From: a virus | Lineage: Duplodnaviria; Heunggongvirae; Uroviricota; Caudoviricetes | DNA: 64,000 nt | Direction: 5' to 3' (one strand) | Virus record (IMG/VR): IMGVR_UViG_3300031873_001030 | Shown here: positions 698 to 24,479 of the stretch, piece after piece | How positions within the stretch are numbered: position 1 is the first letter of the stretch | Layout: each line of letters starts with the position of its first letter | Program-made: the position numbers and the translations under genes | The notes under the pieces: generated by a model | What the model was told of the DNA's origin: nothing | What the model saw: only the letters and a program-made list of their open reading frames with translations | Databases searched by the model: none

Positions 698-715
698 CAT
701 TAACATATGTTAATG
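698..715. repeat. 18-bp perfect palindrome CATTAACATATGTTAATG (core TTAACATATGTTAA), copy 1
   Basis: Exact palindrome read in sequence; intergenic between ORFs 372-695 and 739-975. Confidence 0.9.
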
Positions 716-738
716 TAAAAAATATGGGATTGGTGTGA

Positions 739-975
739 ATGTTTGACGAGAAATGGATAGCTCATTTGGAGAAGGAACACAACGAGAGATGTTCTGATAG
801 GGATTTGAGAAAGAAGAATAAGATATATGAAGTTTCTAAAAAGTATGCTAAGGATTGTATCAAGTGTCAATATATCTGTGAGAGAAGCAATAATTTTCAA
901 TCCACGTTGAAAGAGTTGAAGAGAATGGGTTGGAAGATATATTTTCCTAAAGTGAGACAAACCAGAGGAGATTGA
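739..975 (+). CDS. hypothetical small protein (78 aa, Cys-containing)
   Basis: ORF track. Confidence 0.3.
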   Translation: MFDEKWIAHLEKEHNERCSDRDLRKKNKIYEVSKKYAKDCIKCQYICERSNNFQSTLKELKRMGWKIYFPKVRQTRGD

Positions 976-985
976 AATCTTATGT

Positions 986-1003
986 CATTAACATATGTTA
1001 AAC
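986..1003. repeat. palindrome core TTAACATATGTTAA copy 2 (core at 988-1001)
   Basis: Exact 14-bp core read in sequence, intergenic. Confidence 0.9.
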
Positions 1004-1195
1004 ATTTTTTTTCTAGCGAACCAAACAGGAAGGTGTAGAATGAAAAAGAAAAAAACATATTGGATAATTGATTGGTGTAATGTGGAAAATTGTAAAGTAG
1101 CATATACATTAACAGAAGCAAGAAAATTTGCGAAAGAATTATATGAAGATAGTTCTCGCGTAATCATATTTCAATATATAGAAGAAAAGAGTTAG
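995..1195 (+). CDS. hypothetical small protein (66 aa)
   Basis: ORF track. Confidence 0.25.
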   Translation: MLNIFFLANQTGRCRMKKKKTYWIIDWCNVENCKVAYTLTEARKFAKELYEDSSRVIIFQYIEEKS

Positions 1196-1206
1196 AGGTG
1201 TAGAAA

Positions 1207-1578
1207 ATGGGAATGTATAGTTCTACTGATTGGTGTGAATTGAAAGTGAAAAGGGGAAAGGAAATAGAATTTTTTGATTGGCTTAAGAGGAATGAAGATT
1301 GGAAAGAAGCGATAGAAGTATTGAATGGCGAAGTAGAGATACAAGTCAGTTGGAAGATTATAAGTTATTGGTATGACAGCTTCCTTGACGAACTTGAACA
1401 GCTTGCTGAATATATTACAGGAAAATGGATATTGCTTTATGAGACAGGAGAAAGCAAAGCCATAATAACATTTACAGAAGATGACGAAGTGAAGATAGAA
1501 GTTGGGGAAATGGATTATCACAAAATTGATATAGATGATTTGAGAAAGGAAAATATGAAAATGGAAAGGAGTGATTAA
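1207..1578 (+). CDS. hypothetical protein (123 aa)
   Basis: ORF preceded by GAGGTG Shine-Dalgarno-like motif 7 nt upstream; stop codon TAA lies inside palindrome copy 3. Confidence 0.4.
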   Translation: MGMYSSTDWCELKVKRGKEIEFFDWLKRNEDWKEAIEVLNGEVEIQVSWKIISYWYDSFLDELEQLAEYITGKWILLYETGESKAIITFTEDDEVKIEVGEMDYHKIDIDDLRKENMKMERSD

Positions 1579-1626
1579 CATATGTTAAGAGAGTCGGCGG
1601 ACCCTGAGTTGCTTAACATATGTTAA
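1575..1626. repeat. pair of palindrome cores (1575-1588, 1613-1626) separated by a 24-nt GC-rich spacer GAGAGTCGGCGGACCCTGAGTTGC
   Basis: Read directly; spacer is near 60% GC in a genome near 33% GC. Confidence 0.9.
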
Positions 1627-1795
1627 GAAGCTTCATCCCGTTTCCATAGTAAATTTAAATACTATGGAAACTAATATTACATATGGTTAGATGGAAAAAA
1701 GATAGCCATATGATATTTGACAGCAACAATATCTATAATGATTTAGGTAATTGTTGGATTGACTTGAAAGCAAAGAAAAAAATGAGGTGATATGA

Positions 1796-1886
1796 AATGC
1801 CTGTTGGAAGACCTAAAGGTTATAGTCCTAAGAGAGATAATCAGAAGTGGAACTATTGCCCAAATTGTGGGAAGAAAGTAAATTGA
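1796..1886 (+). CDS. 29-aa zinc-ribbon micro-ORF (MPVGRPKGYSPKRDNQKWNYCPNCGKKVN)
   Basis: ATG with GAGGTGA 8 nt upstream; CxxC motif; below the 60-aa cutoff of the ORF track. Confidence 0.3.
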
Positions 1887-1905
1887 ACTAAAGAGGTAAT
1901 GAATT

Positions 1906-2094
1906 GTGAATTTGGAGAAGATTGTAAAGAAGATACAATTCCATAAAGAGATATTGATAAAGTTGAAGAATGATATGATTAAGAAGCATAGTCCTTTAGC
2001 TCCTGCGTATATAACTCATATACGTAGTTTGGAAGGTTTCTTGGCATATCTTGAAAAGGAGTTCAAAGCTATTGGAGAACAGAAAGAAGATTGA
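1906..2094 (+). CDS. hypothetical small protein (62 aa)
   Basis: ORF track. Confidence 0.25.
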   Translation: MNLEKIVKKIQFHKEILIKLKNDMIKKHSPLAPAYITHIRSLEGFLAYLEKEFKAIGEQKED

Positions 2095-2313
2095 TATGCT
2101 GAAAGGAAGTCTTTATAGATATTTCTTTTGTAAGGAAAAGAAAGAAAAAGAATATAGGTGTCCAAAATGCGATTGTATTTTGGAGATAGAGATAAAATGT
2201 GGACCCAAGTGATATTGATGAATAAATTACACGTAGATATATTTGGTATGGATATGGATTTTGTTAAATGTAATTCTATAAAAAATTCTCAGACAAGCGC
2301 TTCTGAAGACAAC

Positions 2314-2504
2314 TTAACATATGTTAAGAATTCAGCAGTACCTGCAGCAAGCAACTCATTAACATATGTTAAGTATCTCCATCGAATCATCCTTGGCAAA
2401 CGCCAGACCCAGGAACACAAGTCTTTAACATATGTTAATGTAATCATTGGCCGCATTGCCTCAAACAAGAAAGAAAATCCCAGTCGCCCATTAACATATG
2501 TTAA
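2314..2504. repeat. mini-array of 4 palindrome cores (2314-2327, 2359-2372, 2425-2438, 2491-2504) with unique spacers of 31, 52 and 52 nt
   Basis: Exact repeats read in sequence; spacers are GC-rich and unique; repeat-to-repeat distances 45/66/66 are all multiples of 3. Confidence 0.9.
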
Positions 2505-2641
2505 TAAGTTGGTGCCAGCAATTGCTTGGCAACCAACAGCATACAAAGTGATATTATGAATCATATTCCTTTCATATGAAGCAGATATGTGGAAAATATT
2601 TGATACAATAATAGAAGGGAGAAAAAATGAGTTAAAAAGAG

Positions 2642-2854
2642 ATGCGAATAATGAAAATATTTAATTACAACGTGAGCATAACAATAAAGAAAGATTATCC
2701 TAATTGTAAAGCTCCTATTCAAAAGAGATATAGAGAAAAAAAGAGGATGCGTGGTTTTTGTATAAATGGTGGATGTTGGAACAAAGTTGAAAATAACCGT
2801 TCCAAATGTCCAATCTGTATGGAAAAAGATAGGAAGAGATGGAAAGTGAGATAG
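2642..2854 (+). CDS. small Cys-rich zinc-finger protein (70 aa)
   Basis: CxxC...CxxC pattern (CKAP...CINGGC...CPIC). Confidence 0.35.
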   Translation: MRIMKIFNYNVSITIKKDYPNCKAPIQKRYREKKRMRGFCINGGCWNKVENNRSKCPICMEKDRKRWKVR

Positions 2855-2867
2855 TTAGTGATTATTT

Positions 2868-3089
2868 GTGGACATAATAATTTCAACATTGATAGCATTT
2901 GGCTCTTTGGTATTGGCGATATTTTTCATACTTATTGCGAGGTGGGACGCAAACAAAGTGATAGATAAGTTGTATAGAGAGGAATATAAAGAGAGAAATA
3001 GGATTGATGCGAATGTTGTCAAATCACTTGTAGGGAACTTGAAACAGAAAAGAGATGATGAAATATCTAGTTCGGAATATACAAAATGA
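2868..3089 (+). CDS. small membrane protein (73 aa, one N-terminal TM helix)
   Basis: Hydrophobic stretch IISTLIAFGSLVLAIFFILIA. Confidence 0.3.
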   Translation: MDIIISTLIAFGSLVLAIFFILIARWDANKVIDKLYREEYKERNRIDANVVKSLVGNLKQKRDDEISSSEYTK

Positions 3090-3440
3090 TTTTTAAGTAG
3101 CAACGTGTAATTATTAGATTAGTTAGATATAGAGGAGTGAAGGAAGTAACTAAAGAATCTCGTTTCTTTGGATATTTTCTTTAAGAATAAAGTATAATGG
3201 AGGTGGCAAATGTCATTCTACGAAAGATTGGAGAGGAGAGCAAAAGCACTTAATGATATAATGTGGGGTTCAGACGATGAGACTGAAAGTGAATAACTCT
3301 ACTATTAATACTTTAGCAATTAATTATACTATAGGGACTTTAGGAGTTCCTATGGTATAAAAAATCTAGGGGCTTTGTTCCTAGTTAGAAAGGGATATTC
3401 TTCCTTTCTAAAAATATGGTAAAAATAAGGTGATATATAA

Positions 3441-4010
3441 ATGAAGACAATAGAAGTAGAAATAAAAGGTCCTATTTTGCTGATGCATAATCCGAAGTCT
3501 ATGCTAGACCCACAGACTACTGGAACGAAATCATCAACTGCGAAATATGACTATAATGTCGAAGCAGAGAAGTCTGCTTACAAGACGAAAAAAAATGAAT
3601 TATATATTCCTGCCCAAGCTATGTTCAGTTCCACATTGAATGGAGCTTCTTTCAAGAAAGTAGGAAAATATACTGCCAAGAGCATTATAGCTGGCAATAT
3701 GAGAATAGAGCCAGAAGAAATCCTGATTCTAGATAGCAAAGGGAAAGTCATGACAAAATATGAGATAGACTTGAGGACTGTGGTTATTGCTCAAGGTAAG
3801 AAAAGAAACCGAATAGTCAGGGCAAGAGCTATGGTAAAGGATTGGAGTGCTAGATTCAGAATAGTCTATAACGACCAATTCATAGGCGACCCTGCTATAA
3901 TAGAAGATTGCTTGAAGGATGCAGGTTCAAGGATAGGTCTGTTGGAATACAGACCACAGACAAGTGGAAGCTACGGAACATTTGAGATAGTGAAATTCAA
4001 GGTGATATAA
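3441..4010 (+). CDS. hypothetical protein (189 aa), translationally coupled to the downstream ParB-like gene
   Basis: AAGGTGA Shine-Dalgarno-like motif 8 nt upstream; stop TAA overlaps the ATG of the next gene (TAAATG). Confidence 0.5.
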   Translation: MKTIEVEIKGPILLMHNPKSMLDPQTTGTKSSTAKYDYNVEAEKSAYKTKKNELYIPAQAMFSSTLNGASFKKVGKYTAKSIIAGNMRIEPEEILILDSKGKVMTKYEIDLRTVVIAQGKKRNRIVRARAMVKDWSARFRIVYNDQFIGDPAIIEDCLKDAGSRIGLLEYRPQTSGSYGTFEIVKFKVI

Positions 4011-4895
4011 ATGGCACTATGGGATAGGGAAGAAAGAAAGCATACGGAAAATAAAGTATTGCCACTCAAGGATATAGTATTTGATGAGAACATATATCCA
4101 AGACAAAGTTCATGGTGGCAAACTTCGTATAAATATGCCGAAGAGATGAAAGCAGGCGCAAGGTTTCCTCCAATCACAGTAGGTTTTGTGAATGGAAGAT
4201 ACGTGCTTGTGGATGGGAAGCATAGGAATGACGCACTTCTGATGAATAAGGAGACACATACATCAGTAGTAGTTCTCTATGGTTACACTTTGGATGAACT
4301 CTATATTGAAGCTGTAAAACTCAATAGGGCTCACGGTGTAGGACTTACTTCTTTCGACAAGGTCAAGATAATCAAGAGACTTGAAGATATGAAATATTCA
4401 TTGGGAGACATAGCCACGATAGTCCAGATTCCTTTGGGAAGCATAGAGAAATTTGTAGCACAGAGGATTACGTTAAATCCATTAGGACAAGTCACAGTAT
4501 TGAAATCTCCTCTCAAGTTTATGGCAGGAGGAACTATAACGATGACTGACGAAGAGCAAGATACTCTAAGTGTGAGGAGTGAGATAAGTCTGGTAAATCA
4601 GATGACACAGATATTCTCAAATCCGAAGATGCTAAGGGTTGATATAACATTCGTTGATGCTATCGAGAAGCTTTACCAACTGATTCAAGATTTCCTCAAA
4701 GAACAGAAAATTTTGAATGGAGCTGGAAATACAATAGAAGAAGTTCCAAAAGAGAAAATATACAAGAAAAGAGGAAGACCTAAGAAAATCAAGACTGAAA
4801 GTGAGACTTCAGAACCAAAGAAAAAGGGAAGACCTAAAGGTTCTAAGAACAAGCTTAAAGAACTTGATGTCAGTAACGTCAAAGAACAAGCATAA
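4011..4895 (+). CDS. ParB-like nuclease-domain protein with C-terminal AT-hook motifs
   Basis: N-terminal region with VDGKHRNDAL resembles the ParB/Srx catalytic motif; C-terminus carries two KRGRPKK/KKGRPKG AT-hooks. Confidence 0.55.
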   Translation: MALWDREERKHTENKVLPLKDIVFDENIYPRQSSWWQTSYKYAEEMKAGARFPPITVGFVNGRYVLVDGKHRNDALLMNKETHTSVVVLYGYTLDELYIEAVKLNRAHGVGLTSFDKVKIIKRLEDMKYSLGDIATIVQIPLGSIEKFVAQRITLNPLGQVTVLKSPLKFMAGGTITMTDEEQDTLSVRSEISLVNQMTQIFSNPKMLRVDITFVDAIEKLYQLIQDFLKEQKILNGAGNTIEEVPKEKIYKKRGRPKKIKTESETSEPKKKGRPKGSKNKLKELDVSNVKEQA

Positions 4896-4943
4896 ATAGT
4901 TAATCAGTTAGACTTTATTTGGAAAGAATGAAGCAGGGTTTAG

Positions 4944-5016
4944 TGACAACGAACCTCAGAGATAGAACTTACTGATTCTTAGAATCAGTTGGTTCTTACT
5001 GCGAGGTTCGTTGTCA
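4944..5016 (+). repeat. 73-nt stem-loop element family, copy A (14-bp terminal stem TGACAACGAACCTC / GAGGTTCGTTGTCA)
   Basis: Terminal inverted repeat with a compensatory substitution relative to copies B, C and D; begins 49 nt after the ParB-like stop. Confidence 0.6.
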
Positions 5017-5431
5017 TAGTTCCTTCCCTCTTCATACTTTCTTTAATATTAGGGAATTTATAAAAACTGTAGGTTTTTATTATGAGATAAGGTTCGGTTG
5101 GGTCAGTTGGGGTGGGTTCCGTTCCGATATGGTATGGTAAGATTATATTTATTGGACGTGGTAGGATAGGGTAGGATGCGATATGGTATTGTTACTTGTT
5201 CCGATATGGTTCGGTGATTTGGGGTTAGGTTAGGTCTGTTCCGATAGGGCAAGGTATGGTATTTTATTTATTCGATACGGTTCGGTTTGGTGGGTTTGGG
5301 TTAGGCAAGATAAGATAGGGTTAGACAAGGTATCTTACTTTTGTATCCGATTGGGTAAGGTCTGGTAGTATTCGGTCCGTTGTGGTTAGGCACGATATGG
5401 TGTGGTAAGGTTTGACATTTATAGTCAGTCA

Positions 5432-5491
5432 TTAACATATGATAAAGAGTTGGACCCAGTGCACGGGTGGCATTCCATTAACATATGTTAA
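5432..5491. repeat. variant palindrome (TTAACATATGATAA, 5432-5445) plus canonical core (5478-5491) with a 32-nt GC-rich spacer
   Basis: Read in sequence; sits at the edge of a satellite block. Confidence 0.85.
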
Positions 5492-5513
5492 TGAGAAAAG
5501 ATAAGAAATAATG
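5472..5513 (+). repeat. 42-bp direct repeat ATTCCATTAACATATGTTAATGAGAAAAGATAAGAAATAATG, copy 1 (copy 2 at 5817-5858)
   Basis: Two identical 42-mers flank the ORF 5526-5798; each is followed by a start codon. Confidence 0.85.
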
Positions 5514-5525
5514 TAAAATGATAAT

Positions 5526-5798
5526 ATGAAGAAGATAAAGGAAGAATTTTGCTTTCGCAGGAATGATACTAGAACTTCATATGATATGCAGAAAGGCTAT
5601 CTGATATATGGCAAGATTGATGACATTTATAATATCATCACTTACAATCTATTTGAGATGTGGAATACTACAAAGTGTTTTAAAAGGTTTAGGAAATTGT
5701 TCGTCACTACTTCAAATCACGAATGGATACATTATCTTGTTCCAGATATAAAAGATGGAAGTCTGATGAAGAAGATTGAAAATTGGTTTAACTGGTAA
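5526..5798 (+). CDS. hypothetical protein (90 aa) bracketed by 42-bp direct repeats
   Basis: ORF track; flanking direct repeats. Confidence 0.35.
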   Translation: MKKIKEEFCFRRNDTRTSYDMQKGYLIYGKIDDIYNIITYNLFEMWNTTKCFKRFRKLFVTTSNHEWIHYLVPDIKDGSLMKKIENWFNW

Positions 5799-5816
5799 AA
5801 TGTATCGTTAACCAAA

Positions 5817-5858
5817 ATTCCATTAACATATGTTAATGAGAAAAGATAAGAAATAATG
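5817..5858 (+). repeat. 42-bp direct repeat copy 2 (contains palindrome core 5823-5836)
   Basis: Identical to 5472-5513. Confidence 0.85.
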
Positions 5859-6150
5859 AAAATCAAAAAGAGGTAAAAAAAATGAGATACTATTGCCGAG
5901 AACATAAGGAAAGTTTTGAGACTACTGTCTGCTTTCTTCAACATGTTCTTAAGGAACACCATAGCATATTTGACATCACAAGTGAATAGATATTTATGTG
6001 ATGAGGTGGGGTCAAGTCAGGTCGGTTCTGGTTGCGATACTGACCTTATCACACCAAACCTCACCTTACCAGGGTTCGATAAGTTGTGATTTGGTAGGAT
6101 AGGGTAAAGTTATTTATATTTGAAACACGTAATTATATGTCAAGGAAGTC

Positions 6151-6223
6151 TGACAACAAACCTCAGAGTTGGAACTTTCTGGTTCTAAAAAATCACTTAG
6201 TTCTTTCTGCGAGGTTTGTTGTC
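6151..6223 (+). repeat. 73-nt stem-loop element, copy B (stem TGACAACAAACCTC / GAGGTTTGTTGTC)
   Basis: Embedded in the satellite; stem co-varies with copies A and D. Confidence 0.6.
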
Positions 6224-6948
6224 TTTGTATCGACTTTATCATTCGGTCAGGTAAGGCGGGTTCAGGTGGGGTATAGTTTCGGTTCGGTATGGTAGTTTGA
6301 CATTTATACGATACGGTAAGGTGAGGTTTGGAAGATAGTCTTTATGATTCGGTAAGGTGGGGTCAGTTGCGATTGTGTGAGGTTTGATTTGGTTTGGTCT
6401 GATTTGGTAGTTTGAGGCAAGGTAAAGTTAATTCCTTTTATATGATAAGGTATGGTCTAATTCGGTCTGGTTTGGTTGGATGGGCTACGTTCCGATAAGG
6501 TTCGGTATGGTAATATGACACTTATACGATTAGGTTCGGTCAGGTAAGGTTGGGTCAAATGCGATTAGGTAAGATGAGGTTCGGTCAGATACGGCAAGAT
6601 ATGGTATAATATTTATTCGGTTAGGTGAGGTCAGTTTAGGTCTGGTCTGATGTAGTTTGGCATGGTAGTATAACACTTATCGGTTTGGTTCGGTATGATG
6701 CGATATGGTCAGATTCGGTTTGATATGGTAGTATGACACTTATTGGTCAGGTTTAGTAGAATATGGTAAGGTTCGGTTCGATACGGTGGGATATGGTCAG
6801 TTAGGATTTGGAAAAGGAGAGAATAGTTTCAAGAAAGAATCAGCCCTTGGGTGAGTCCCTTGAAATGAAAAATGCCGCACCAGAGATGGTGATATTAGGT
6901 AAACTAATATAAATCAAGGTTCGAACCGTCCGTTAGGCAACGGTTCTC

Positions 6949-7020
6949 TGACAACAAACCTCAGAGTTAGAACTTACTGGTTCTTGAAATCAGTTGGTTC
7001 TTTCTGCGAGGTTTGTTGTC
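6949..7020 (+). repeat. 73-nt stem-loop element, copy C
   Basis: Embedded in the satellite; loop AGAGTTAGAACTTACTGGTTCTTGAAATCAGTTGGTTCTTTCTGC. Confidence 0.6.
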
Positions 7021-7963
7021 TTCCTCCAAAAAATTACTTATTCGATAGGGTAAGGATAGGTATGCTATGTCAGGGTCAGGTTTGGTTAGGTTTGATATGG
7101 TATGGTAAGGTAATTTAATACTTTTGCTTTGGTGCAATATGGTAATATTCGGTAGGGTATAATTCGGTGGGTTCCGTTAAGGTATGGTAAGGATTATATT
7201 TATGAAATACGTATATAGGAATAGAGATGATGAAAGGGAACTTAAATTTGAAGTTCCAGATAGTATGTCAATAGCTGAAGCATTTGAATTTGCAGAAAGG
7301 AAATGCGCCAGCATGGAGTGATTATAATTTTTGGTCTGGTAGGGTGCGATTAGGTACGATTGGGTTTGGTCAGATAGGATATGATATGGACTATTGTAAT
7401 TTTCGGTTAGGTGCGGTTAGGTCTGGTTTGGTGCGTTCGAGGTGTGGTCAGATAGGATATGGAACTTTCATTCGTACTTTTCGGTAGGGCATTATTCGGT
7501 CCGATATGGTCTGGTCAATTCCGCTCTGGTTCGGTTAGATAGTGTATGGTGATATATGTTAAGTCGTGGTTTGGTTCGGTCTGGTAGAATGAGGTTTATC
7601 TTTTTTGATAGGCTATCGTTCGGTCTGGTGAGGTATGGTTCGGTAGGGTTCGGCAAGGTTTAATCCTTTTAGGAAAGGGTCTTTGATTCATTCCCTTTCT
7701 ATAAAAGATTTATCCCACGTCTTCGGGATTTATCCCTTCTTTCAGAAGGGATTTATATATCACCGAATCTCGTTTTAAACGAGATTCACAAAGAACTTGT
7801 GGTCGGGTCTGATACGGCAAGGTGTGATACGGTAAGATAAGATTGGGTTATGGTCTGGCAAGGAACTTTTTACTTATATGGTTTGGCACGGTCCATTCCG
7901 TTGCGTTTAGGTGTGGTAAGGCTTGGTATGGTTACGATTTATTTGGCGTAACATATGTAATAC

Positions 7964-8632
7964 GTGTATTTAAGGTTTCTTATGTATAGTTATGCTATGG
8001 CAAAAGATGAGAATAGGGAAATAAACGTCAGTGGAAAGACAATTGCCTTAATCCTTATGGTAATCATTACAATATTTTCAGTAGGCAGTCTGATAGTAGC
8101 CATAAATGATAAAGGTCAAGCTTCCTCAGATTCAACTAGCTGGCAGAACAAATATACAACTTGCAGTTCTGGATTAAGCTCTTGCAACTCTCAACTAAGC
8201 TCTTCTCAATCAAGCTCCTCTTCATGCGCTTCACAACTCAATACTTGCAATAGCAACCTTGATTATTATCAGAACACAGGAGGAACTTGCAGTTCAGATT
8301 TGAGCAATTGCAATGCCAATTATAATACCTGCAATGCCAATCTTAACAATTATAAGACACTTTATTCTAATTGCGGTGGCAGTCTGACTAACTATCAGAC
8401 ACTTTATTCTAACTGCCAGTCAAGCTATTCTACTTGTAATTCTAATTTCAATACTCTGACTTCCACTTACAATTCTCTGAAGTCAAATTCTGATGTCATG
8501 GCACAGAATTATGCCAGTATGAAATGCTGTCCAAGCTGGCCATCCACCAAATACAGCTATTACTATACAAGCAATGGAAATGTCTATTGCACTGATACAG
8601 CAACAGCAAGCACAAAACTTACAGGATGCTAA
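7964..8632 (+). CDS. secreted/anchored Ser/Cys/Asn-rich repeat protein (222 aa) with N-terminal TM anchor
   Basis: TM helix IALILMVIITIFSVGSLIVAI; periodic TCNSNL/NCNANY/TCNANL/NCGGSL/NCQSSY/TCNSNF units with a Cys every 10-11 residues. Confidence 0.45.
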   Translation: MYLRFLMYSYAMAKDENREINVSGKTIALILMVIITIFSVGSLIVAINDKGQASSDSTSWQNKYTTCSSGLSSCNSQLSSSQSSSSSCASQLNTCNSNLDYYQNTGGTCSSDLSNCNANYNTCNANLNNYKTLYSNCGGSLTNYQTLYSNCQSSYSTCNSNFNTLTSTYNSLKSNSDVMAQNYASMKCCPSWPSTKYSYYYTSNGNVYCTDTATASTKLTGC

Positions 8633-8793
8633 ATCATGAGAAAATATACATCCGACAAATGGTTGAAACCTGGTGAAAAATATATCAGCACTGCAGAGAA
8701 AGAACCTGTTCCTAAAAAGAAATATGGTCATGTAGAAATTCCAGATATAGAAGACGATTGATAACTAATATTATAATAGTTTTTAAGTGGTAA

Positions 8794-9276
8794 GTGATGA
8801 GTTACGACGAGACAAGTGATTTAGCATATCTGATATTATTCGTCGGTTGTATAATTGGATTGCTCATACTTATCGTTGGCTTAGTCGGATTTTTCAATCT
8901 TGTCCAAGGATTATATTTTTGGGATTGGTTCATACTATTTATCTTGACATTCCTAGCTTCAGAAGTTTTCTTCCTTCTTGTATTCAAGAAAAAACCGACA
9001 GGAAATGTATTCTGGAAGACATTTGGAAATAAGATTTTATCTTGGATGTCAGGTTCGTTGATAATCGCAGAATTTACTTCTTTCTATTATTACATTATTC
9101 TGAACATAATCAGAGATTGGCTTACCGTATTGGAAGTATTGACTACTATAGGAAAAATAATTGGAATAGGTGTGATGATTGCATCACTTATTGCTTTTTA
9201 CGTATGGTTCAACACTTTGAGATATAAAAATATCAAAGAACCTAAAGGGAAACTTAAAAAAGTATACAAGAGGTGA
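8794..9276 (+). CDS. integral membrane protein (160 aa, about 4 TM helices)
   Basis: Four long hydrophobic segments. Confidence 0.45.
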   Translation: MMSYDETSDLAYLILFVGCIIGLLILIVGLVGFFNLVQGLYFWDWFILFILTFLASEVFFLLVFKKKPTGNVFWKTFGNKILSWMSGSLIIAEFTSFYYYIILNIIRDWLTVLEVLTTIGKIIGIGVMIASLIAFYVWFNTLRYKNIKEPKGKLKKVYKR

Positions 9277-9280
9277 TTAG

Positions 9281-9608
9281 TTTCTGATAATTACTCAGAC
9301 ATTCACATTCGGACATAGTGAAAATCTTCTGGCAAGGATATTCTCCTCAAGCACAACACTTGCAAGATGCACATTTGTTTTCAATGAAAGACGCATAATA
9401 GAATATTATATCCGTGAAGAATGGGGTGGAAAAATTGCTGATACAAAAACTATTAATGGTTTCATAGACAGATTATGTAGAGACACCACGCATGAATTTG
9501 TTCATGCTCTTGGAAATTGCCATGTGGAATGGGTACCAAAGATGATGGATAGATGGATGAAAAAACGAATCATATATGCACATTCTGTGGGACAAAGGAA
9601 GGACCTAT
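9281..9608 (+). CDS. possible gene with a non-ATG start (or pseudogene) carrying a HExxHxxGxxH metzincin-type motif
   Basis: About 109 sense codons open from the TAG at 9278-9280 to the TGA at 9606-9608; contains HEFVHALGNCH; no in-frame ATG until codon 88, so absent from the ATG-based track. Confidence 0.25.
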
Positions 9609-9702
9609 GATACAGTTTGACTATGACGACTGGGAATGTGAAAAATGCCATAGGATGGGAAGACACATATCACGTAAATAAATATGAATATCAAAATCAG
9701 AA

Positions 9703-10209
9703 TTGAAATATATGGAAGGATATAGTGTAAAGATTGGAAAGTGTTGTAATTGTAAAAAGGATATAACTAAAATGGGATTGAAAATAATAAAAGCAGAAGT
9801 TTTCACGAAAGAAGTATTTGACAAGATAATGAAAGGTGATTATATCGAAAATGCTAAGAAAGAGTATGAAAGCTTTTCCAATCAAAATCAGAGAAAAGGC
9901 CAATGGTTGTGGAATAAAATATGGGATAAAGTAGTTGATAAAGCAAAGAGACCAGAGAGTGAAAAAGATATTCTTGAAAATGAACAATTAGTTTCACATC
10001 ATCTATGGACTATGAAAGATTCTGAATTTGATGAGATGATGTCAAAGAGGGTAGATTGTTCTAAAATCTTGAAACTGATTGACGAATTTAGTAAAAAGTT
10101 TGATGTTAAGACTTTAGAATTATGTGGAGAAACTATAGAATATATTCCTATAACAATTGCAGACTGGAACAACTTTAAGGAAAAACTCAAGCAAGAGATT
10201 TTGAAATGA
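9703..10209 (+). CDS. hypothetical protein (168 aa)
   Basis: ORF track; no recognised motif. Confidence 0.4.
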   Translation: MKYMEGYSVKIGKCCNCKKDITKMGLKIIKAEVFTKEVFDKIMKGDYIENAKKEYESFSNQNQRKGQWLWNKIWDKVVDKAKRPESEKDILENEQLVSHHLWTMKDSEFDEMMSKRVDCSKILKLIDEFSKKFDVKTLELCGETIEYIPITIADWNNFKEKLKQEILK

Positions 10210-10332
10210 TGATAACAACAGCAATATTCATATTACTGAAACTTTTTGTAGAGAATAATAGTGTATCTTGGTGGTGGATGTTACTTTTCATACTCTTTGA
10301 TTTGATGATGGTTCTTACTATCAGAGTAGATT

Positions 10333-10524
10333 TTGGAAGATGAAATTATGAGTTATAAATGTGAAAATTGTAAAGGAACAGTTCCAAACTGTATGCCACA
10401 AATAAAGATAATTGTAGAAAAGAGAGATAAGACATATCCGAATGGAAGCATTGGTTGGGAAACAGTCAAAGAGAAAGTATTGTGCAGTTCATGCAATAAG
10501 GATAAAGAGGTCAAAAAATCATAG
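10333..10524 (+). CDS. small zinc-ribbon protein (63 aa)
   Basis: CENCKG...CSSCNK motif pairs. Confidence 0.3.
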   Translation: MEDEIMSYKCENCKGTVPNCMPQIKIIVEKRDKTYPNGSIGWETVKEKVLCSSCNKDKEVKKS

Positions 10525-10649
10525 ATTTCAATCAGATAATTGACAAGTATCTGGATAGGGAAAGGAGAGAAAGAAAGATAGGGGAATATTATGTTAGCGA
10601 GATTCCATATTGTTTAAGATTAACTTGGTTTAGATTCAAACAGCCTAAA

Positions 10650-11186
10650 GTGACATCCAAAAAAACACTCAGGCTATTCGAGAGGGGCAATGTGATTCAT
10701 CAATTCATATCAAAAGTCCTATTGAGTTCGGAAGCAGTAAGGGAAGTAAAAAGTGAACAGTCACTAAGGATACCAAGGATATCTGACAACCCTAAGGAAA
10801 ATTTTCTAATCACAGGCAGATTTGATAACTTTATTGAATTAGTAGAAGGGGAAAATGTGCTGATTGAAGTGAAGACGACAAGAAATCTGGATTATCAGAA
10901 ATCAGCTTCATTGCATCATATCATGCAACTGACACCATATCTTTTATACAAGCAAGGTCTGAAAGGTGCCATATTGTATATAGACATGAACTTCCAGACA
11001 AAAGTATTTGAAGTGATTTATGACCCTAAATTGATGCTGGAAATAATGAAAAGGGCAGAAAATTTGCATATGTATTTAGTGGAAGACAAAATGCCGCTAC
11101 CAGAAGCCAAAGACATACCAGAAAAAAATTGGGAATGCAAATACATATGCAATTATAAAGAGGAATGTGATAAATGTGTTACCTAA
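10650..11186 (+). CDS. PD-(D/E)xK nuclease, Cas4/RecB-like, with C-terminal Cys cluster
   Basis: GRFDNF...IEVK (D...ExK) followed by QxxxY-like LYKQ; C-terminal CKYICNYKEECDKC cluster as in Fe-S Cas4-type nucleases. Confidence 0.4.
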   Translation: MTSKKTLRLFERGNVIHQFISKVLLSSEAVREVKSEQSLRIPRISDNPKENFLITGRFDNFIELVEGENVLIEVKTTRNLDYQKSASLHHIMQLTPYLLYKQGLKGAILYIDMNFQTKVFEVIYDPKLMLEIMKRAENLHMYLVEDKMPLPEAKDIPEKNWECKYICNYKEECDKCVT

Positions 11187-12039: not shown

Positions 12040-12374
12040 GAAAAAAATTCAATTATGAAAACTATTACAAGAAATATTATGAAAGTCATAAGGATAAGCA
12101 CTTGTATTATGTCAATGAATGGAAGAAGAAGCATAAAGATAGTGTAAGAATTTATTCCAAACGTTATTCCAAAAGTTGGAGATTGAGAAACAAAGAAAGA
12201 TTGAAGAAAACTTCAAAAAGATATTATGACAGGCATATCAGAAGTTCTTGGTTCGATAGGATATTTGGTTTCAAATGCAAAGTATGCGGCAAGAGATATA
12301 AAGATAAAAAGGCTTTGGGTGGGCATACCACATATTGTAAAAGAAAAAGGATTGAACTTATTAACATATGTTAA
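12018..12374 (+). CDS. basic K/R/Y-rich protein with C-terminal C2H2-like zinc finger
   Basis: CKVCGKRYKDKKALGGH motif; N-terminal composition similar to the HNH protein N-terminus. Confidence 0.4.
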   Translation: MDKGKKMRKKFNYENYYKKYYESHKDKHLYYVNEWKKKHKDSVRIYSKRYSKSWRLRNKERLKKTSKRYYDRHIRSSWFDRIFGFKCKVCGKRYKDKKALGGHTTYCKRKRIELINIC

Positions 12375-12411
12375 AAAGATTGCATGCAGATAACTTCTTA
12401 ACATATGTTAA
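12361..12411. repeat. pair of palindrome cores (12361-12374, 12398-12411) with a 23-nt spacer
   Basis: Read in sequence; overlap the stop of 12018-12374 and the annotated ATG of 12405. Confidence 0.9.
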
Positions 12412-12995: not shown

Positions 12996-13353
12996 GCAAT
13001 ATGCCTACTACAATCAATAACGAAAGCATTACGAAATTTATAAATCTCGAAGAATCAAATGAGATATTCTTCCCATTATACCAAAGGAATACAAAAGGTG
13101 ACATCCAGAAAAAATGTTTGTGCTTCAGTATGAACAGAGTATCTTCAAGAGTAAATTTGCTATGCCTCAAATCTTCTTTATAATCCTTTATGAAACTTTT
13201 TTCTACCAGATGCTTTTCCTCATGCTTTCTGAGCCTTAAGAACAAGCTTCTATTTTTTTTTAGAAATGGTTCCATGTAGATATTGCCATCTTCGACATAG
13301 GCTATGTTGAACGGGTCAAGCTTCTTATAGATAATCTGGTATTTCAAAGTCAT
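12988..13353 (-). CDS. hypothetical protein (121 aa)
   Basis: ORF track; begins the minus-strand block. Confidence 0.35.
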   Translation of the reverse strand: MTLKYQIIYKKLDPFNIAYVEDGNIYMEPFLKKNRSLFLRLRKHEEKHLVEKSFIKDYKEDLRHSKFTLEDTLFILKHKHFFWMSPFVFLWYNGKNISFDSSRFINFVMLSLLIVVGILLI

Positions 13354-15984: not shown

Positions 15985-16499
15985 CTAAGCTTTCGTATCT
16001 TGACTTCGATGAATGTCTCGGCATCGAAAAACTTTCCAAACTTCAGAGGAATCCATATTATCTTCCCTCTTTTTCCCATCTGACCCACCTTACATCTAAA
16101 ACTTATTTCATTTATCATAAAATATATTAGTTTCATTAGAATATAAAGTTTTAAATTCAATTATAATACAGCAAATAGAAGTGACAATTATACCAAACCC
16201 AAGTTGAGTCACTGAAATGAGGATTTATAGTTCAATCCAATCTTTACAATTTCCACAGAAGTCTCCACCACTCTTACAGCTTCCATCATAAAAATTTTTA
16301 CAACTACTGCAGCATCTCAAGTTTTAACCTATTTTTAGCTTCTTCTTCCAACTTACATATTTCATTTATCGTATACATCACAATAACCTCCACATCTTCA
16401 ATCTGACAGCGAGTTTATACATATTATGCCAAAACCAACTGCCTTCATTCTTTCTCGCAAACATATATATTCCAACATATGTTATCAATGACATAATTG

Positions 16500-16770
16500 T
16501 AAACCACAGATTACCAGACCATACCCGAACCTATAAGACCACATCACACCTGAGCGAAAAGTGTTAACCATACCACATCAGACTTTATCATGCCTTACCA
16601 GTCCTTAACATATCGTAACTTACCACAACGTAGCATAAATGACAATCCATATCTTACCACACACCAACATATCTTACCAAAACCCACCCTAACCCATCTA
16701 ACCCAATCATAAATATAATCCCTATCTTACCAAATCCCATCACAACGGACCCTACCAAATCAGACCCCGT
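16500..16770 (-). repeat. inverted copy of the (GGTNN)n satellite (reads ACC-rich on +), including the CATAAATGACAA and CATAAATATAATCC punctuation units
   Basis: Reverse complement matches the unit structure of the 5091-7925 array; contains degenerate palindrome TTAACATATCGTAA at 16605-16618. Confidence 0.8.
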
Positions 16771-17742: not shown

Positions 17743-18933
17743 ATGACGTTGAAGAATCTTGTAACGCCATTGGAACTTAAGACTCTCTGGGATTCTGAAT
17801 ATTACAAATCAATATTGACAGCTACAGCTAGCAGCTGCCAATTTGGAAGGATAAGAGAACACCAACGTAATAATACATTCAAAGAAATCAGAGCCAATCT
17901 GAATGCTCTGATAGTTGGAGAATATGGAATTGGGAAATCCACAATGTTGGACATTAAGAATGTCCCAATAGTCAGGGCTAATACAGTTTCAGTTGCTGGA
18001 CTAGCTGGAACTACGACAAGAAGTGGGGAACACGTTATTGGAGCTGCATATAAAGCTAATAATAAATTACTAATTATAGATGACGTTGGTAGTGGTGAAA
18101 ATTCTTATATAGATAATTCTGTAAAACGATGCATGAATCTGCTATTGGAACCTCCGCATACTTTTTCACGAATGTTAGGATTTAAGATGAACATTCCTGT
18201 GAAAGAGAAGAAGGGTGGAGCTTGGGTGAAAGGAAGTGAGAATCAGTTTACATTGCGTTCTAAGTTCAGTTGCATCGTAGCTACAACATCAGTTGTAATT
18301 CGAAATACTGATGACAAAGCTTGGATGTCAAGATTCGTACCAGTAAAACTACATGGTAGTGTGGATTACATGTTTGAATTTTTATCTGGTTCTAATCCAT
18401 TTACAATTACTGGTTTGAATCGGAAAGTCAAGTTATTTGAATTTCCAGATTATCTGGAATTCTTGGAATTCTATGAAGAACATTTTCGTGGAAGTCTGTG
18501 GGAGAAAAGCATAATAGAAAAGGAAGATGAAGTCGGTTCTATAGCGAGAAATACTGGTGACTTGGTAAGATTGGCTGCTTTCAATTGCGCTGTCGATGAT
18601 AGAATAAATATAGAATTTGAAGATGCCAAGAAAGTTTTTGATAGGTTCTACAATCAGATATGGTTCAATATCCAAGTTGGACCACTGACTCATGAACAAT
18701 ATAGAGTTCTATTACTTCTCAATAAGAAGTTGACTGAAGATGAGATAGCAGAAACTATACAAAGGTCACAGCCTTACGTATCTAAGATGATAGAGAAATT
18801 TGAAAGTAAGGGAATACTTGTAGACAGAAAAGTTGCGAAAGAAGTTGAAAACTTTAAACAAACTTCATGGGAAAAACTCGAACCACAGCAGACTTTATCA
18901 GAATCTGTAAAGTTAGATGGTAGTCATGAGTGA
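17743..18933 (+). CDS. mini-MCM-like AAA+ helicase core with C-terminal winged helix (no N-terminal OB/zinc domain)
   Basis: Walker A LIVGEYGIGKST; MCM-like GLAGTTTRSGEH...LLIIDDVGSGEN block; arginine-finger-like SRFVPVKL; C-terminal wH LTEDEIAETIQRSQPYVSKMIEKFESKGIL. Confidence 0.5.
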   Translation: MTLKNLVTPLELKTLWDSEYYKSILTATASSCQFGRIREHQRNNTFKEIRANLNALIVGEYGIGKSTMLDIKNVPIVRANTVSVAGLAGTTTRSGEHVIGAAYKANNKLLIIDDVGSGENSYIDNSVKRCMNLLLEPPHTFSRMLGFKMNIPVKEKKGGAWVKGSENQFTLRSKFSCIVATTSVVIRNTDDKAWMSRFVPVKLHGSVDYMFEFLSGSNPFTITGLNRKVKLFEFPDYLEFLEFYEEHFRGSLWEKSIIEKEDEVGSIARNTGDLVRLAAFNCAVDDRINIEFEDAKKVFDRFYNQIWFNIQVGPLTHEQYRVLLLLNKKLTEDEIAETIQRSQPYVSKMIEKFESKGILVDRKVAKEVENFKQTSWEKLEPQQTLSESVKLDGSHE

Positions 18934-20128: not shown

Positions 20129-20344
20129 TTGGTAAATATGGATTTTATACCTGGAAAATTTTACAGTGTTAAGGAAATAGATGAAGGACTTACAGATTTG
20201 AGAGTCATACACAAGATTAAGGGTGTCGATTATCATCTTTTTAGGAATAAATCACATGATGATGGGAATAGGTATTATCTTATGTATGTTTCAAAAGCGT
20301 ATTGGTTGAAAGAAATACGGGAACGAGGTTTGTTGAAAATATGA
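20129..20344 (+). CDS. hypothetical small protein (71 aa)
   Basis: ORF track. Confidence 0.3.
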   Translation: MVNMDFIPGKFYSVKEIDEGLTDLRVIHKIKGVDYHLFRNKSHDDGNRYYLMYVSKAYWLKEIRERGLLKI

Positions 20345-20502
20345 CAAGAGAAGATAGAAGAAACAAAGTCGCACCAGGATGGAAATTTCTCCATAGCAAG
20401 AATAAGACCCTGCTGTTGAGATACGACAATGAAAATAAATAAAATCAGGAAAGTGAAAAATAGATGACTCACCAAATATAAAGAATAATGAAAGTGAAAT
20501 AG

Positions 20503-21672: not shown

Positions 21673-21728
21673 GTTTATATACTTTCACAAACAATATATA
21701 ATATGCTTCAGAGACATGAAGTTAACTA

Positions 21729-22961
21729 TTGGAGATGAAAGTGATGAACATAGGTGAAGTTGAAATTGGAAAACCTTGGCAATATAAGGAAAATTCTATT
21801 GGAATTGTTGTTCCACTTTTAAGGAAGAATCAAGTCAAAAGAAATTATAAGACAGTTGAGGAAGTTAAGGAGATGATGAATATCAAGGATACTGGAAATA
21901 TAGACAGTGTTGAAATTTCCTCAAAAGTCAATGAACCAGTTTTTATCAGGAGCGGGACGATGTTTGAAGGGGTTGGAACTCAGAGCAGGACGCCAACAAC
22001 TAGCATTGTCATAATTCCAAATCAACAGCCTATGAAAGTTCCTGTAAAATGCATACATGCTTCTCATCACATATCTTCTGGAAGCAACTTTAAAGTCGCA
22101 GGTAGTATTCCCCACTATATTGGTTATGCAGCTTTTGGACCAAGGGCTAGTCAATCTCGTGTGTGGTCTTCTGTAAGCATGCAAGCAAGTTCTGTAAGCC
22201 ATCATGCTATGCATCTTTCTGACAATCTTATCGATAACGTAAGAAAAATAGAAACTTTTAAGAAAGATATTGGCGAAGCAGTTAAAAACTATCCGATATT
22301 GAAAAATCAAGTTGGTATAGTTGTTCTTGATTTTAACGGGGTTGTTGGTCTTGAGATGTTTGATAATTCTGAATCTTGGGCAGCAGTATGTAAAGACATA
22401 ATCAATAAGTATTCTGACACAATAACACAGCTTGTTGACAGTCCTTTATTTTCATTGAATGAAGAAAGCATAAAACCAAAGATATTGGAATTCTTGAAGA
22501 AGCTGACAGAAGCAAAAGAAGAGATTATCTTTCAAGCAGATGTGATGAAAACAATCTTATTGGAAAATGGAGATATCATTGGAGAATGTACGAGTATTGA
22601 TGGCAGGATGATACATCTCATGGGAATGAAAAAGAAGGATGAGGAAAGGACATATGGTTCAGTTGCTCCAAATAATTTACCATTTACACCACAAAATTGG
22701 ACAACCAGAGGTTCTAACTATTCTGTGCTATCTGCACTTGGAGATGGAAGTAGGAGATTTTCAGAAATAGAGAAAACAACTAAATTATCCCCAGCTACAG
22801 TAAGCAAAAATTTAAGCAAGTTCCATTCTCTTGGATTTATTGACAAGTCAGCAGAAATAATAAACAACAAGGCCCGTGAAGTTTATAGCCTTACAAGCAA
22901 CGGTAAAAATGCATTTTTTACTATGCATGATGTCAGGAAGAAATTGATGAAGCTTGGATAA
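21729..22961 (+). CDS. putative transcriptional regulator (410 aa) with C-terminal winged helix-turn-helix
   Basis: C-terminal RRFSEIEKTTKLSPATVSKNLSKFHSLGFIDK resembles ArsR/MarR-type wHTH; N-terminal domain unrecognised. Confidence 0.4.
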   Translation: MEMKVMNIGEVEIGKPWQYKENSIGIVVPLLRKNQVKRNYKTVEEVKEMMNIKDTGNIDSVEISSKVNEPVFIRSGTMFEGVGTQSRTPTTSIVIIPNQQPMKVPVKCIHASHHISSGSNFKVAGSIPHYIGYAAFGPRASQSRVWSSVSMQASSVSHHAMHLSDNLIDNVRKIETFKKDIGEAVKNYPILKNQVGIVVLDFNGVVGLEMFDNSESWAAVCKDIINKYSDTITQLVDSPLFSLNEESIKPKILEFLKKLTEAKEEIIFQADVMKTILLENGDIIGECTSIDGRMIHLMGMKKKDEERTYGSVAPNNLPFTPQNWTTRGSNYSVLSALGDGSRRFSEIEKTTKLSPATVSKNLSKFHSLGFIDKSAEIINNKAREVYSLTSNGKNAFFTMHDVRKKLMKLG

Positions 22962-23109
22962 GCCTTAAATACTTTAACAGCCAATATTTTTTAGATATCA
23001 AATGAGAATCTACGATAATGTCACGATATAAGTTACACATTATGTGTAACCTCTCTATCTTTGCCTAGCAAGTGAAGACAGGGACATAAAAGAAAAAGAG
23101 GTAGATTCA

Positions 23110-23427
23110 ATGGTATTAATGTATAGGCAGGGAGACTTGCTTTTCAGAAAAGTAGAGAAGATTCCTTCTAATGCAGATGTCGTTAAAAATGGCGTTATTC
23201 TAAAAGGTGAAGCGACTGGACATGCTCACAAGCTTGTAGGCGGTACAGTATTTTCACAGTCAACTGGATTCATGGGAAATGGTCCAAGACAAATGTTCCT
23301 TCAAGTTGAAAAGAGCGGAAGAGTTGTTCATGAAGAACATAAAACAATTGAACTTGAAATTGGGTTCTACATCGTAATCCGTCAACGTGAATATAACCCA
23401 TACAGAATCTCATTAGTCGGGGATTAG
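23110..23427 (+). CDS. hypothetical protein (105 aa)
   Basis: ORF track; coupled to the next gene. Confidence 0.35.
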   Translation: MVLMYRQGDLLFRKVEKIPSNADVVKNGVILKGEATGHAHKLVGGTVFSQSTGFMGNGPRQMFLQVEKSGRVVHEEHKTIELEIGFYIVIRQREYNPYRISLVGD

Positions 23428-24054
23428 ATGATGGACGAATTCAAGAACACAATGAAAGGATTCTTTCACAGTTTTGATTATCTTCCTGAAGTGTTCAAGA
23501 CTCTTCATATCATAAGGCTAGTTCCAGGAAAGTTCGAGGTCAAGATGAAGCAGCCAATGATAATCCTTGGAAACCTGAGATTCCTGAATGAGACAAAACA
23601 TAGATGGCAGGAATACAATTTCGAAACTTTCTTCCTCAAAAAGAGAATTCCAGATTGCCAATGCAAAGAAGTCATGGATGCTGCAAAGGAATACATCCTA
23701 TTCAAAAGACTGCATGAGAACCAGAAAATCAGTGCAAGAGAAATAATGAATTGCAAAAATCTCGAATTGAGGAGAGCATTACTTGAAAGGTTTGGTTATG
23801 AGAAAATGTTGAATGAGCTTGGTGGACATATGATAGATGCAGAAGGAAATTACATTCTTTTCAAAATGGATTTCAGGGAAGTAAATGAATCTGTAAAATT
23901 AAATGAGGATGTAAAACTTTTGAAGATGAAGGATTCCTCAACAGAAAGATGGTATGTATTAAGGGTTCCTCCAAATGTAAAAAATTGCACTGAAGCTGTG
24001 TCATGGTCTTTCAATACGCCAGTTGAAGAATACAAATTAGAAGTGGAAACATAG
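23428..24054 (+). CDS. hypothetical protein (208 aa)
   Basis: ORF track; ends at the tRNA-like fragment. Confidence 0.4.
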   Translation: MMDEFKNTMKGFFHSFDYLPEVFKTLHIIRLVPGKFEVKMKQPMIILGNLRFLNETKHRWQEYNFETFFLKKRIPDCQCKEVMDAAKEYILFKRLHENQKISAREIMNCKNLELRRALLERFGYEKMLNELGGHMIDAEGNYILFKMDFREVNESVKLNEDVKLLKMKDSSTERWYVLRVPPNVKNCTEAVSWSFNTPVEEYKLEVET

Positions 24055-24100
24055 TGCGTGTGACAGGATTTGAACCTGTAAGGCACTAAGCAACGGATAT
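24054..24100 (-). other. tRNA 3'-half-like fragment (T-arm ACAGGTTCAAATCCTGT + CACACGCA) without a matching 5' acceptor strand
   Basis: Perfect T-stem-loop on the minus strand but no complementary 5' strand within 300 nt; possible att-site remnant or split tRNA. Confidence 0.3.
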
Positions 24101-24415
24101 CCAAGTCCTAATCGTTTAAGTTTACTCTTGGTTTGAGCCTTTGAGTTTGGGCCTCTAAGTCCGCCTATCTTTTAAATAATTATATATGCTGTAATATATA
24201 TTATGAAAAAGCGAAAACTAATTTAACTGTTGAAATTAAAGTTATTGGATATGTCTTACTGTAAAGCATGCAGAATATGCCTTCCTTTCTTAATTCATCA
24301 TGCAATTTTATAATTAAGAAGGTTATAATGTTGACTTTGATACTCTTCTTTCCAGCACAAGCTCATATCTTTTTAATACCTTCCTTATTGCAGCAATGAT
24401 ACTTATCTTTTTCTC

Positions 24416-24479
24416 TTAACATATGTTAATCAGTGATGCAGCATAATGCAAAATTCCTTCAGTCTTTAACATATGTTAA
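24416..24479. repeat. pair of palindrome cores (24416-24429, 24466-24479) with a 36-nt spacer
   Basis: Read in sequence; intergenic between the tRNA fragment and tRNA-Pro. Confidence 0.9.

Follow-up and report, generated by a model that had tools for sequence, protein, structure and literature searches.

A 14-bp palindrome, TTAACATATGTTAA, was found to recur along one arm of a probably archaeal, virus- or plasmid-like element, part of which is deposited as IMG/VR record IMGVR_UViG_3300031873_001030 and was analysed here over a stretch of 64,000 nt (the window). The palindrome is most likely a family-specific cis-element that serves foremost as an operator or boundary site and secondarily as a junction for the exchange of gene cassettes. 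With a confidence slightly better than even, its general form, TTAWCATATGWTAA, is interpreted as a dimer-bound operator/boundary site at the borders of transcription units, by which promoters would be repressed or insulated. An operator for a dimeric DNA-binding protein had been one of several alternatives listed in a preliminary description made from the letters of the window, and it is the one favoured by the half-site mixing and the boundary placement reported below.

TTAACATATGTTAA is present 14 times in exact form in the window, and once with a single mismatch (TTAACATATGATAA, at 5432), where 0.03 copies were expected and none of 100 shuffled sequences reached 15, in agreement with the number and the excess over chance given in the preliminary description. 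The copies start at positions 700, 988, 1575, 1613, 2314, 2359, 2425, 2491, 5432, 5478, 5823, 12361, 12398, 24416 and 24466. The conserved unit comprises 14 bp, and 18 bp in a subset of copies, and the flanks show no conservation. L038, a contig of 11.2 kb that stems from the same sample, matches window positions 1-2049 without a difference and reaches 9,174 bp further upstream; these 9.2 kb before window position 1 carry another 11 exact copies and one single-mismatch copy. For the joined 73 kb this amounts to 25 exact copies, two copies with one mismatch and one with two mismatches, 0.9 of the latter being expected by chance. The copies span window coordinates -9033 to 24479, which is one arm of 34 kb, and there are none from 24.5 to 64 kb. 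Since the SPFH gene of the right half has homologues in the related contigs L039 and L047, the right half is part of this element family too, and the motif is therefore arm-specific. Of the two degenerate copies that had been described at the edges of satellite arrays, the one at 5432 stands, because its altered half-site is the dominant type in the relative L042, whereas the one at 16605, with two mismatches, is at chance level. Distances between neighbouring sites concentrate at 44-46 bp (8 of 26), and no clean 10.5- or 11-bp period was detected in the helical phasing of adjacent sites. A full-text literature search for the 14-mer returned no paper.

The sites of the window and the promoter-like stretch associated with two of them are as follows, with ORF denoting open reading frame.

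700..713: solitary palindrome, 4 nt past the stop of ORF 441-695 and 25 nt ahead of the ATG at 739.
988..1001: solitary palindrome, 12 nt past the stop of ORF 739-975 and 38 nt ahead of the ATG at 1040, with a T8 run after it.
1575..1626: palindrome pair with a 24-nt spacer of 67% GC; the TAA stop of ORF 1207-1578 comes from the first copy.
2314..2504: four-site cluster with spacers of 31/52/52 nt, inside ORF 2167-2559.
5432..5491: pair with a 32-nt spacer, located where the first NNGGT satellite ends; its leading copy has the hybrid half-site combination TTAACATATGATAA.
5492..5513, plus strand: promoter-like stretch TGAGAAAAGATAAGAAATAATG, with a second copy at 5837-5858; kept after a palindrome in L007.
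5823..5836: solitary palindrome; the 22-nt promoter-like stretch that comes after the copy at 5478 recurs behind this one.
12361..12411: two copies 23 nt apart, the first of which provides the stop codon for the C2H2 zinc-finger ORF 12018-12374.
24416..24479: two copies separated by 36 nt, lying between tRNA genes of the minus strand where the palindrome-bearing arm has its right edge.

The sites are strongly enriched at gene boundaries. According to confident gene calls, non-coding DNA makes up 19% of the region from -8230 to 5989 and holds 15 of its 22 sites (P=7e-7) and 9 of its 12 clusters (P=4e-5). In 11 clusters the final site is located 11-81 nt ahead of the next start codon. In the pair 12361..12411 the second copy lies 35 nt ahead of the ATG at 12447 of a methyltransferase gene. 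When all 27 exact and single-mismatch sites were checked against gene ends, three were seen to supply or overlap the stop codon of the upstream gene and one to overlap the start codon of the ligase gene (the resulting N-terminus, MLKC, is common to L021), so that the overlaps with stop and start codons noted previously are real; one further site is near the end of a small ORF and four are within ORF 2167-2559. A recurrent motif, TTTAAGATAA(T/A)AAT..(A)CGTGCTTAT(A)G, was identified ~30-40 nt upstream of many start codons of the left arm (L038 900-2400; window 5492-5513 and 5837-5858, the TGAGAAAAGATAAGAAATAATG stretches being members of it), and it looks like an archaeal BRE/TATA element plus initiator. 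This promoter-like motif occurs with or without the palindrome, and some palindromes abut or overlap its AAGATAA, for example ...ATGTTAAGATAATAAT at L038 2522. Taken together, the positions relative to gene ends and to this motif place the palindromes between the end of one transcription unit and the putative promoter of the next, and both the distance of 11-81 nt from starts and the non-coding enrichment are those of promoter-proximal operators, as far as promoters can be predicted from the letters. A scan for sigma-70 promoters and terminators was uninformative because the element is probably archaeal.

Exact copies are present at matching intergenic positions in three relatives, L007, L025 and L021. 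L007, in which the genes for a RAMP-fold and a ParB-like protein have 77% nucleotide identity to those of the window, contains two palindrome pairs, and in L025 a single pair and two isolated copies are present. L021 and L038 share their gene order and encode proteins that are ~70-85% identical; in both, sites occupy the same intergenic positions before and after the vWA gene and before and after the ligase gene. The spacers at orthologous positions (L038/L021; window/L007/L025) have accumulated substitutions and indels like neutral DNA and are still alignable. The 14-mers remain exact while the spacers diverge, a pattern typical of conserved sites in unconstrained DNA and not of acquired spacers. 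Conservation of repeat positions with turnover of spacers, which had been proposed as a check, was thus observed for the positions; the spacers were inherited and diverged, not replaced.

The most informative relative is L042, in which a variant cluster of 6 sites occupies, as judged from gene order, likely the same position after the vWA gene at which L038 and L021 each have 3 sites (one degenerate copy counted), so that the number of sites per position differs among relatives (3 vs 3 vs 6). The family TTAWCATATGWTAA is represented in L042 by seven copies of TTATCATATGATAA, seven hybrids (four TTAACATATGATAA and three TTATCATATGTTAA) and no copy of TTAACATATGTTAA, and 18 further single-mismatch variants were found in its 20.6 kb. 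These counts of 7 symmetric, 7 hybrid and 0 other symmetric sites compare with 7.9, 5.25 and 0.9 under independent assortment; the site in L042 is two-fold symmetric and its half-sites vary independently, as in an operator read by a dimer. Each hybrid places an A.A or T.T mismatch in the sole possible 5-bp stem, and the half-site mixing therefore reflects conservation of two separately read half-sites, which is the pattern of a protein dimer, and not of base pairing. Additionally, variants TTATCAGATGATAA and TTATCATCTGATAA were observed in frame within ORFs of L042 (8900-9100 and 11322-11383), where they encode LSDD[NK], LSSDK and LSYDK; the 3' end of its ParB-like gene is one of these places.

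The same data bear on an RNA-level reading, according to which hairpins or paired copies enclosing a spacer would act as terminators, processing sites or structured RNAs, perhaps together with the RAMP protein; this is considered very unlikely. The sites do lie at the 3' ends of genes, the spacers are enriched in GC, the RAMP-fold protein is encoded 0.9 kb from the four-site cluster, and a palindrome-free relative, L047, has true covarying hairpins at one equivalent position. Moreover, palindrome pairs fold into stems of 14-16 bp with z-scores of -2.8 to -7.3, but these scores are due to self-complementarity and carry no added weight. A single copy, by contrast, forms only an A-U stem of 5-7 bp, and T- or U-runs are inconsistent. 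The hybrids, which account for 7 of the 14 sites in L042, break the stem, and the outer-position and central variants found there are not compensatory. The spacers show no conserved sequence between relatives, and the RAMP gene is equally present in relatives devoid of the palindrome. Scans against Rfam with gathering thresholds and with E-values gave nothing in the palindrome clusters, and the sites are absent from the nine terminator-like matches in window 1-13000. The hairpins of L047 are four in number (at 2391, 2475, 5699 and 8867), with a constant top, AACC-GTA-GGTT, and covarying outer stems, and one of them stands directly before the ligase gene, which is the position of the palindrome in L038, L021 and L042.

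The palindromes coincide with breaks in homology as well. High-identity homology between L038 and L021 ends exactly where the palindrome at window -192 starts, and the four-site cluster is missing at the corresponding position of L007, where unrelated genes are found with synteny on both sides; the sites consequently also mark exchange junctions. In these two cases examined, a border motif thus coincides with an indel or exchange junction, as described for the PeSLs of T4-like phages, which are composite promoter-stem-loop motifs at gene borders in variable small-ORF regions (PMC4122927). Both are short motifs at gene borders by promoters that mark such junctions, and the sites reported here are likewise in a poorly conserved arm of small ORFs near a promoter-like motif. 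PeSLs, however, are longer units of promoter plus terminator hairpin in bacterial phages, whereas a bare 14-bp palindrome that stands apart from the promoter-like motif, and whose hairpin is not conserved, was found here. REP/BIME or MITE-like mobile repeats are imperfect palindromes or terminal inverted repeats with target duplications that are spread through a host chromosome; for the palindrome, the observation made is that its copies on the element all fall in a single arm.

As the primary function, a role as recombination or boundary elements (PeSL-like or mobile repeats) through which cassettes are gained, lost and exchanged, with the odd spacers as scars such as filler DNA, is judged unlikely. 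The variable copy number per position among relatives would agree with it, as would the ATP-dependent ligase encoded by the element; an Hjc Holliday-junction resolvase (weak match) is annotated solely in L039. On the other hand, a 14-bp match offers little length for homologous recombination, none of the sites has a linked recombinase or transposase, and the orthologous spacers were inherited and not freshly captured. Every one of the 14 positions is strict despite ~20-25% divergence of the flanks, which points to a sequence-reading function that recombination alone would not need.

In the operator/boundary interpretation, the two 7-bp half-sites (TTAWCAT) of TTAWCATATGWTAA would together be recognised by a homodimer that binds DNA sequence-specifically. 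Sites follow closely on the stop of one gene; the next start is 11-81 nt further on, with the TATA-like motif either overlapped by the site or located downstream of it, and the arm in question may be the small-gene, 'accessory/early' arm of an element of 66-106 kb. Once occupied, they would repress or insulate the adjoining promoters, and clusters of 2-6 sites, with 44-46 bp as the commonest spacing, could provide cooperative or stronger occupancy. The use of identical sites as recombination or indel junctions, by which gene cassettes are shuffled, would be a likely side effect. Protein binding, the regulatory sign (repression or insulation) and the kind of binder are what we infer from the arrangement of the sites.

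The identical palindrome was also found in unrelated loci. Exact pairs of the 14-mer occur in 19 loci of a collection of genomes and metagenomes of 596 Gb, where the number expected by chance is, as a rough estimate, well under one. Seven distinct loci of candidate-phyla-radiation bacteria (L002, L003, L005, L006, L017, L020/L029 and L022) have an exact pair or triple at most ~40 bp away from where a small HTH_17 gene starts, and these HTH_17 genes are mutually homologous. In a Pacearchaeota genome, a palindrome pair is located at the start of a module of a winged-helix (wHTH) nucleotidyltransferase and HEPN. The position of the pairs suggests that the HTH_17 loci have the layout expected of autoregulatory operators. 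They share with the element the identical 14-mer in pairs or triples 15-44 bp apart, adjoining the gene for a small helix-turn-helix (HTH) protein; they differ in having one pair per locus with AT-rich spacers, whereas the element has 27 sites, no HTH_17 gene and GC-enriched spacers. The adjacency in candidate-phyla-radiation bacteria suggests a widespread operator-regulator pair in organisms beyond culture. In another unrelated metagenome contig of 49% GC (L018, 293-531), four palindrome copies were seen, the GC-rich spacers of which hold a perfect hairpin of their own, TGTCTGGTGGACCAGTGGTCCACCAGACA, and no informative gene was found nearby.

The following proteins of the element are relevant to the question of the binder and to the readings discussed below.

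3441..4010, plus strand: Cas7/RAMP-fold protein of 189 aa, translationally coupled to the ParB-like gene; context only.
4011..4895, plus strand: ParB-family protein with ParB N-domain, HTH region and two C-terminal AT-hooks; candidate binder, not specific.
10650-11186, plus strand: Cas4-like PD-(D/E)XK nuclease (PADLOC E 5e-12).
17743..18933, plus strand: AAA+ protein with Walker A at 17917 and a C-terminal winged helix; candidate DNA binder, also present in palindrome-free L045.
21729..22961, plus strand: ARPP-1 domain protein with a C-terminal winged helix like Csa3/CasR; candidate ligand-responsive dimeric regulator.
25714-26358, minus strand: Hef/XPF-type ERCC4-HhH nuclease (NCBIfam E 4e-58).

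The binder could possibly be the ParB-like protein, a winged-helix protein or a host factor. The likeness of the two wHTH proteins to Csa3/CasR is confined to the winged helix. The ParB fold of the 4011-4895 product is genuine and comprises an N-terminal GxxRxxA domain together with an HTH; its ParB domain is closest to the counterpart from the Sulfolobus plasmid pNOB8. A reading in which this protein binds the palindromes as KorB/ParB-type loading sites and spreads or slides from them, with promoter silencing or a partition complex as the outcome, was weighed and is held to be rather improbable. The preliminary description had placed 10 of the 15 copies around this gene; the 11 exact copies and the single-mismatch copy of L038 upstream of the window show that this clustering reflects only where the window begins, and once the upstream contig is joined the sites are off-centre from the gene. 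Seven relatives (L008, L010, L013, L039, L045, L046 and L047) keep the ParB-like gene and its RAMP partner, and L039, the one of them inspected for it, also keeps the satellite downstream, yet a repeated palindrome of this type is absent from all seven. The consistent neighbour of the ParB-like gene in the window, L007, L025, L039 and L042 is an NNGGT satellite and not the palindrome. Furthermore, no ParA-type ATPase was detected, as there is no deviant Walker A in the 73 kb and the sole Walker A is that of the AAA+-wHTH protein. The link between ParB-like protein and palindrome drawn in the preliminary description is thereby weakened, although the ParB fold itself stands.

The closest precedent is given by the OB sites of RK2 KorB, near-identical palindromes of 13-16 bp that are present in many copies, at distances ahead of promoters ranging from a few bp to >1 kb (PMC11790492). 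Both systems have a multi-copy palindrome on one mobile element that encodes a ParB-family protein, and the RK2 sites serve global repression. In contrast to RK2, gene and palindrome do not co-vary here, a partner of the ParA or KorA kind was not detected, the probable host is an archaeon, and the sites form tight clusters of 2-6 with spacers of 22-93 nt, at about one site per 1.2 kb.

The RAMP-ParB gene pair is kept in every relative, with or without palindromes, and was consequently treated as context with a low probability of a link to the palindromes. Relatives of the RAMP-fold protein are uncharacterised proteins in phage metagenomes, one of them annotated as RAMP, and its PHROG family is of unknown function. 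The satellite is a degenerate pentanucleotide repeat with a strict 5-nt period, (NNGGT)n, on the plus strand at 5090-5430 and 6000-7950 and in mirror image at 16480-16760; GGT recurs in it with 2- to 5-fold enrichment at lags that are multiples of 5 nt (5, 10, 15 and so on to 40 nt), and hardly ever at any other lag. Downstream of the RAMP-ParB pair, GGT-rich DNA is present in the window and in the relatives inspected (L007, L025, L039 and L042), and in L039 the satellite has GTTCATGCTT embedded five times. A hairpin element of ~72 nt (GACAACRAACCTCAGAG...CTGCGAGGTTYGTTGTC), with weak sub-threshold Rfam matches, is interspersed with the satellite in three copies (4945-5015, 6153-6225 and 6950-7020). 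The coupling of RAMP and ParB genes and the following satellite are more unusual than the palindrome and merit separate study.

The spacers within the window measure 24, 31/52/52, 32, 23 and 36 nt, as previously given for the pairs and the four-site cluster, and the overall range is 22-93 nt. Their description as GC-rich is correct on average, with a mean of 45.8% GC for 16 spacers of the element and its relatives vs 34.2% in random windows of the same size (reached in 0 of 20,000 resamples), but not for each of them, since GC varies from 35 to 67% in the window and two of its seven spacers are at 35-39%. Their description as unique has to be qualified too: the spacers at 1575 and 5432 look alike by eye, without a score (AGAGT.GG..GACCC.G), and orthologous spacers of relatives can be aligned. 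The proposed comparison of spacers with other sequences was carried out by blastn-short for all spacers against the window and 47 other loci and gave just chance matches of 10-13 nt.

These properties speak against guide-RNA arrays, whether CRISPR-like or of the stem-loop TIGR type, and the preliminary comparison of the clusters to a miniature CRISPR-like array cannot be upheld; such a function is extremely improbable. The layout of repeat, spacer and repeat with compositionally distinct spacers does resemble an array, the element encodes a solo Cas7/RAMP-fold protein and a Cas4-like nuclease, and stem-loop TIGR arrays of archaeal viruses and candidate-phyla-radiation bacteria use palindromic stems (10.64898/2026.09.09.750476). 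However, the repeat of 14 bp (18 in a subset) compares with CRISPR direct repeats of about 23-50 bp, many copies are solitary, spacer length is not near-uniform even within the four-site cluster, no spacer match was found in the loci compared, and related arrays hold diverged, alignable spacers that are neither identical nor unrelated. The statement that there is no cas operon stands, with the qualification that cas-like genes, for the Cas7/RAMP-fold and Cas4-like proteins, are present. In scans that covered part of the ORFs, Cas1, Cas2, Cas3, Cas6 and Cas10 were not found with Pfam, PHROG, NCBIfam or PADLOC, nor was a Nop domain (divergent in Tas proteins) with Pfam.

A stem-loop TIGR unit has two 14-nt intervals of box C-N9-box D and a loop of <=15 nt, with stems that vary (10.64898/2026.09.09.750476). 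None of the 27 units assessed here has two such intervals and 17 of them are too short (<37 nt), which led to the rejection of a TIGR array. The likeness lies in units flanked by palindromic stems and carried by a virus-like element; in one and the same TIGR array the stems differ in sequence, whereas those described here are identical.

A related idea, that the clusters are the RNA or DNA partner of the solo Cas7/RAMP-fold protein and, with the Cas4-like nuclease, form a minimal non-canonical repeat-spacer system, is regarded as highly improbable. The 14-bp sites would in that case have been duplicated around captured or fast-evolving GC-rich inserts, and the RAMP protein might bind hairpin-flanked RNAs, which could, for example, decoy type III/I complexes of the host or act as guides.

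Several observations weigh against the operator/boundary interpretation. In tblastn searches with four of the bacterial HTH_17 proteins, no homologue was found in the window, in L038 or in any of the relatives, so the binder here must be another protein. No window ORF is confined to the palindrome-bearing relatives, as far as these partial loci extend, and none of the candidate binders tracks the motif. The GC enrichment of the spacers (46% vs 34%) is not explained by an operator. Within the four-site cluster every spacing is divisible by 3 and there are no stop codons on either strand (P about 0.001), which an operator model does not predict; for the enclosing, possibly translated ORF 2167-2559, a comparison with 1.84 billion cluster representatives yielded no homologue. 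The in-frame coding copies of L042 are likewise not predicted by the model, and the identity of 25 of the 27 14-mers is sharper than in most transcription-factor regulons. Finally, the promoters are putative ones, assigned by their sequence motif alone, and the domain of the host was deduced from gene content.

If the operator/boundary interpretation is correct, the cis-regulatory code of one arm would consist of a single 14-bp word with a lineage-specific half-site variant, and this word would offer a handle for capturing the regulator, recognising relatives in metagenomes and mapping transcription units.

The left arm consists of dense, small plus-strand ORFs with GGAGGTG-type ribosome-binding sites upstream and encodes a bpMoxR ATPase, a vWA protein, an ATP-dependent ligase, a glycosyltransferase and methyltransferases. 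Related contigs are 66-106 kb in length. No capsid or terminase gene was recognised in the element, which is for this reason called virus- or plasmid-like at most. Its host is probably archaeal, as suggested by the Hef/XPF-type nuclease, the intron-containing tRNA genes, the Hjc annotated in a relative and the pNOB8-like ParB domain. A Borg-like element was considered and rejected, as pervasive perfect tandem repeats are not present. Megablast of 20 kb against 50,697 phage records gave no match, and scans of IMG/VR for the pair pattern, the ParB-like protein and the 18-mer returned no relatives, the eight 18-mer matches being single, unrelated and at chance level.

Intron-containing tRNA-like genes are located on the minus strand at 24056-24170 and 25332-25438, beside a cluster of tRNA-Tyr/Pro/His/Asn genes. 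ARAGORN predicted one tRNA with the anticodon TTA (a stop-codon reader) and an intron of 31 nt at a non-canonical position, which may be a mis-called tRNA-Gln(TTG). In the right half, a plus-strand gene with tandem repeats of 75/150 nt (49389-60647) encodes a protein of 3,752 aa with DUF285 (BspA-like) repeats (Pfam E 3e-138).

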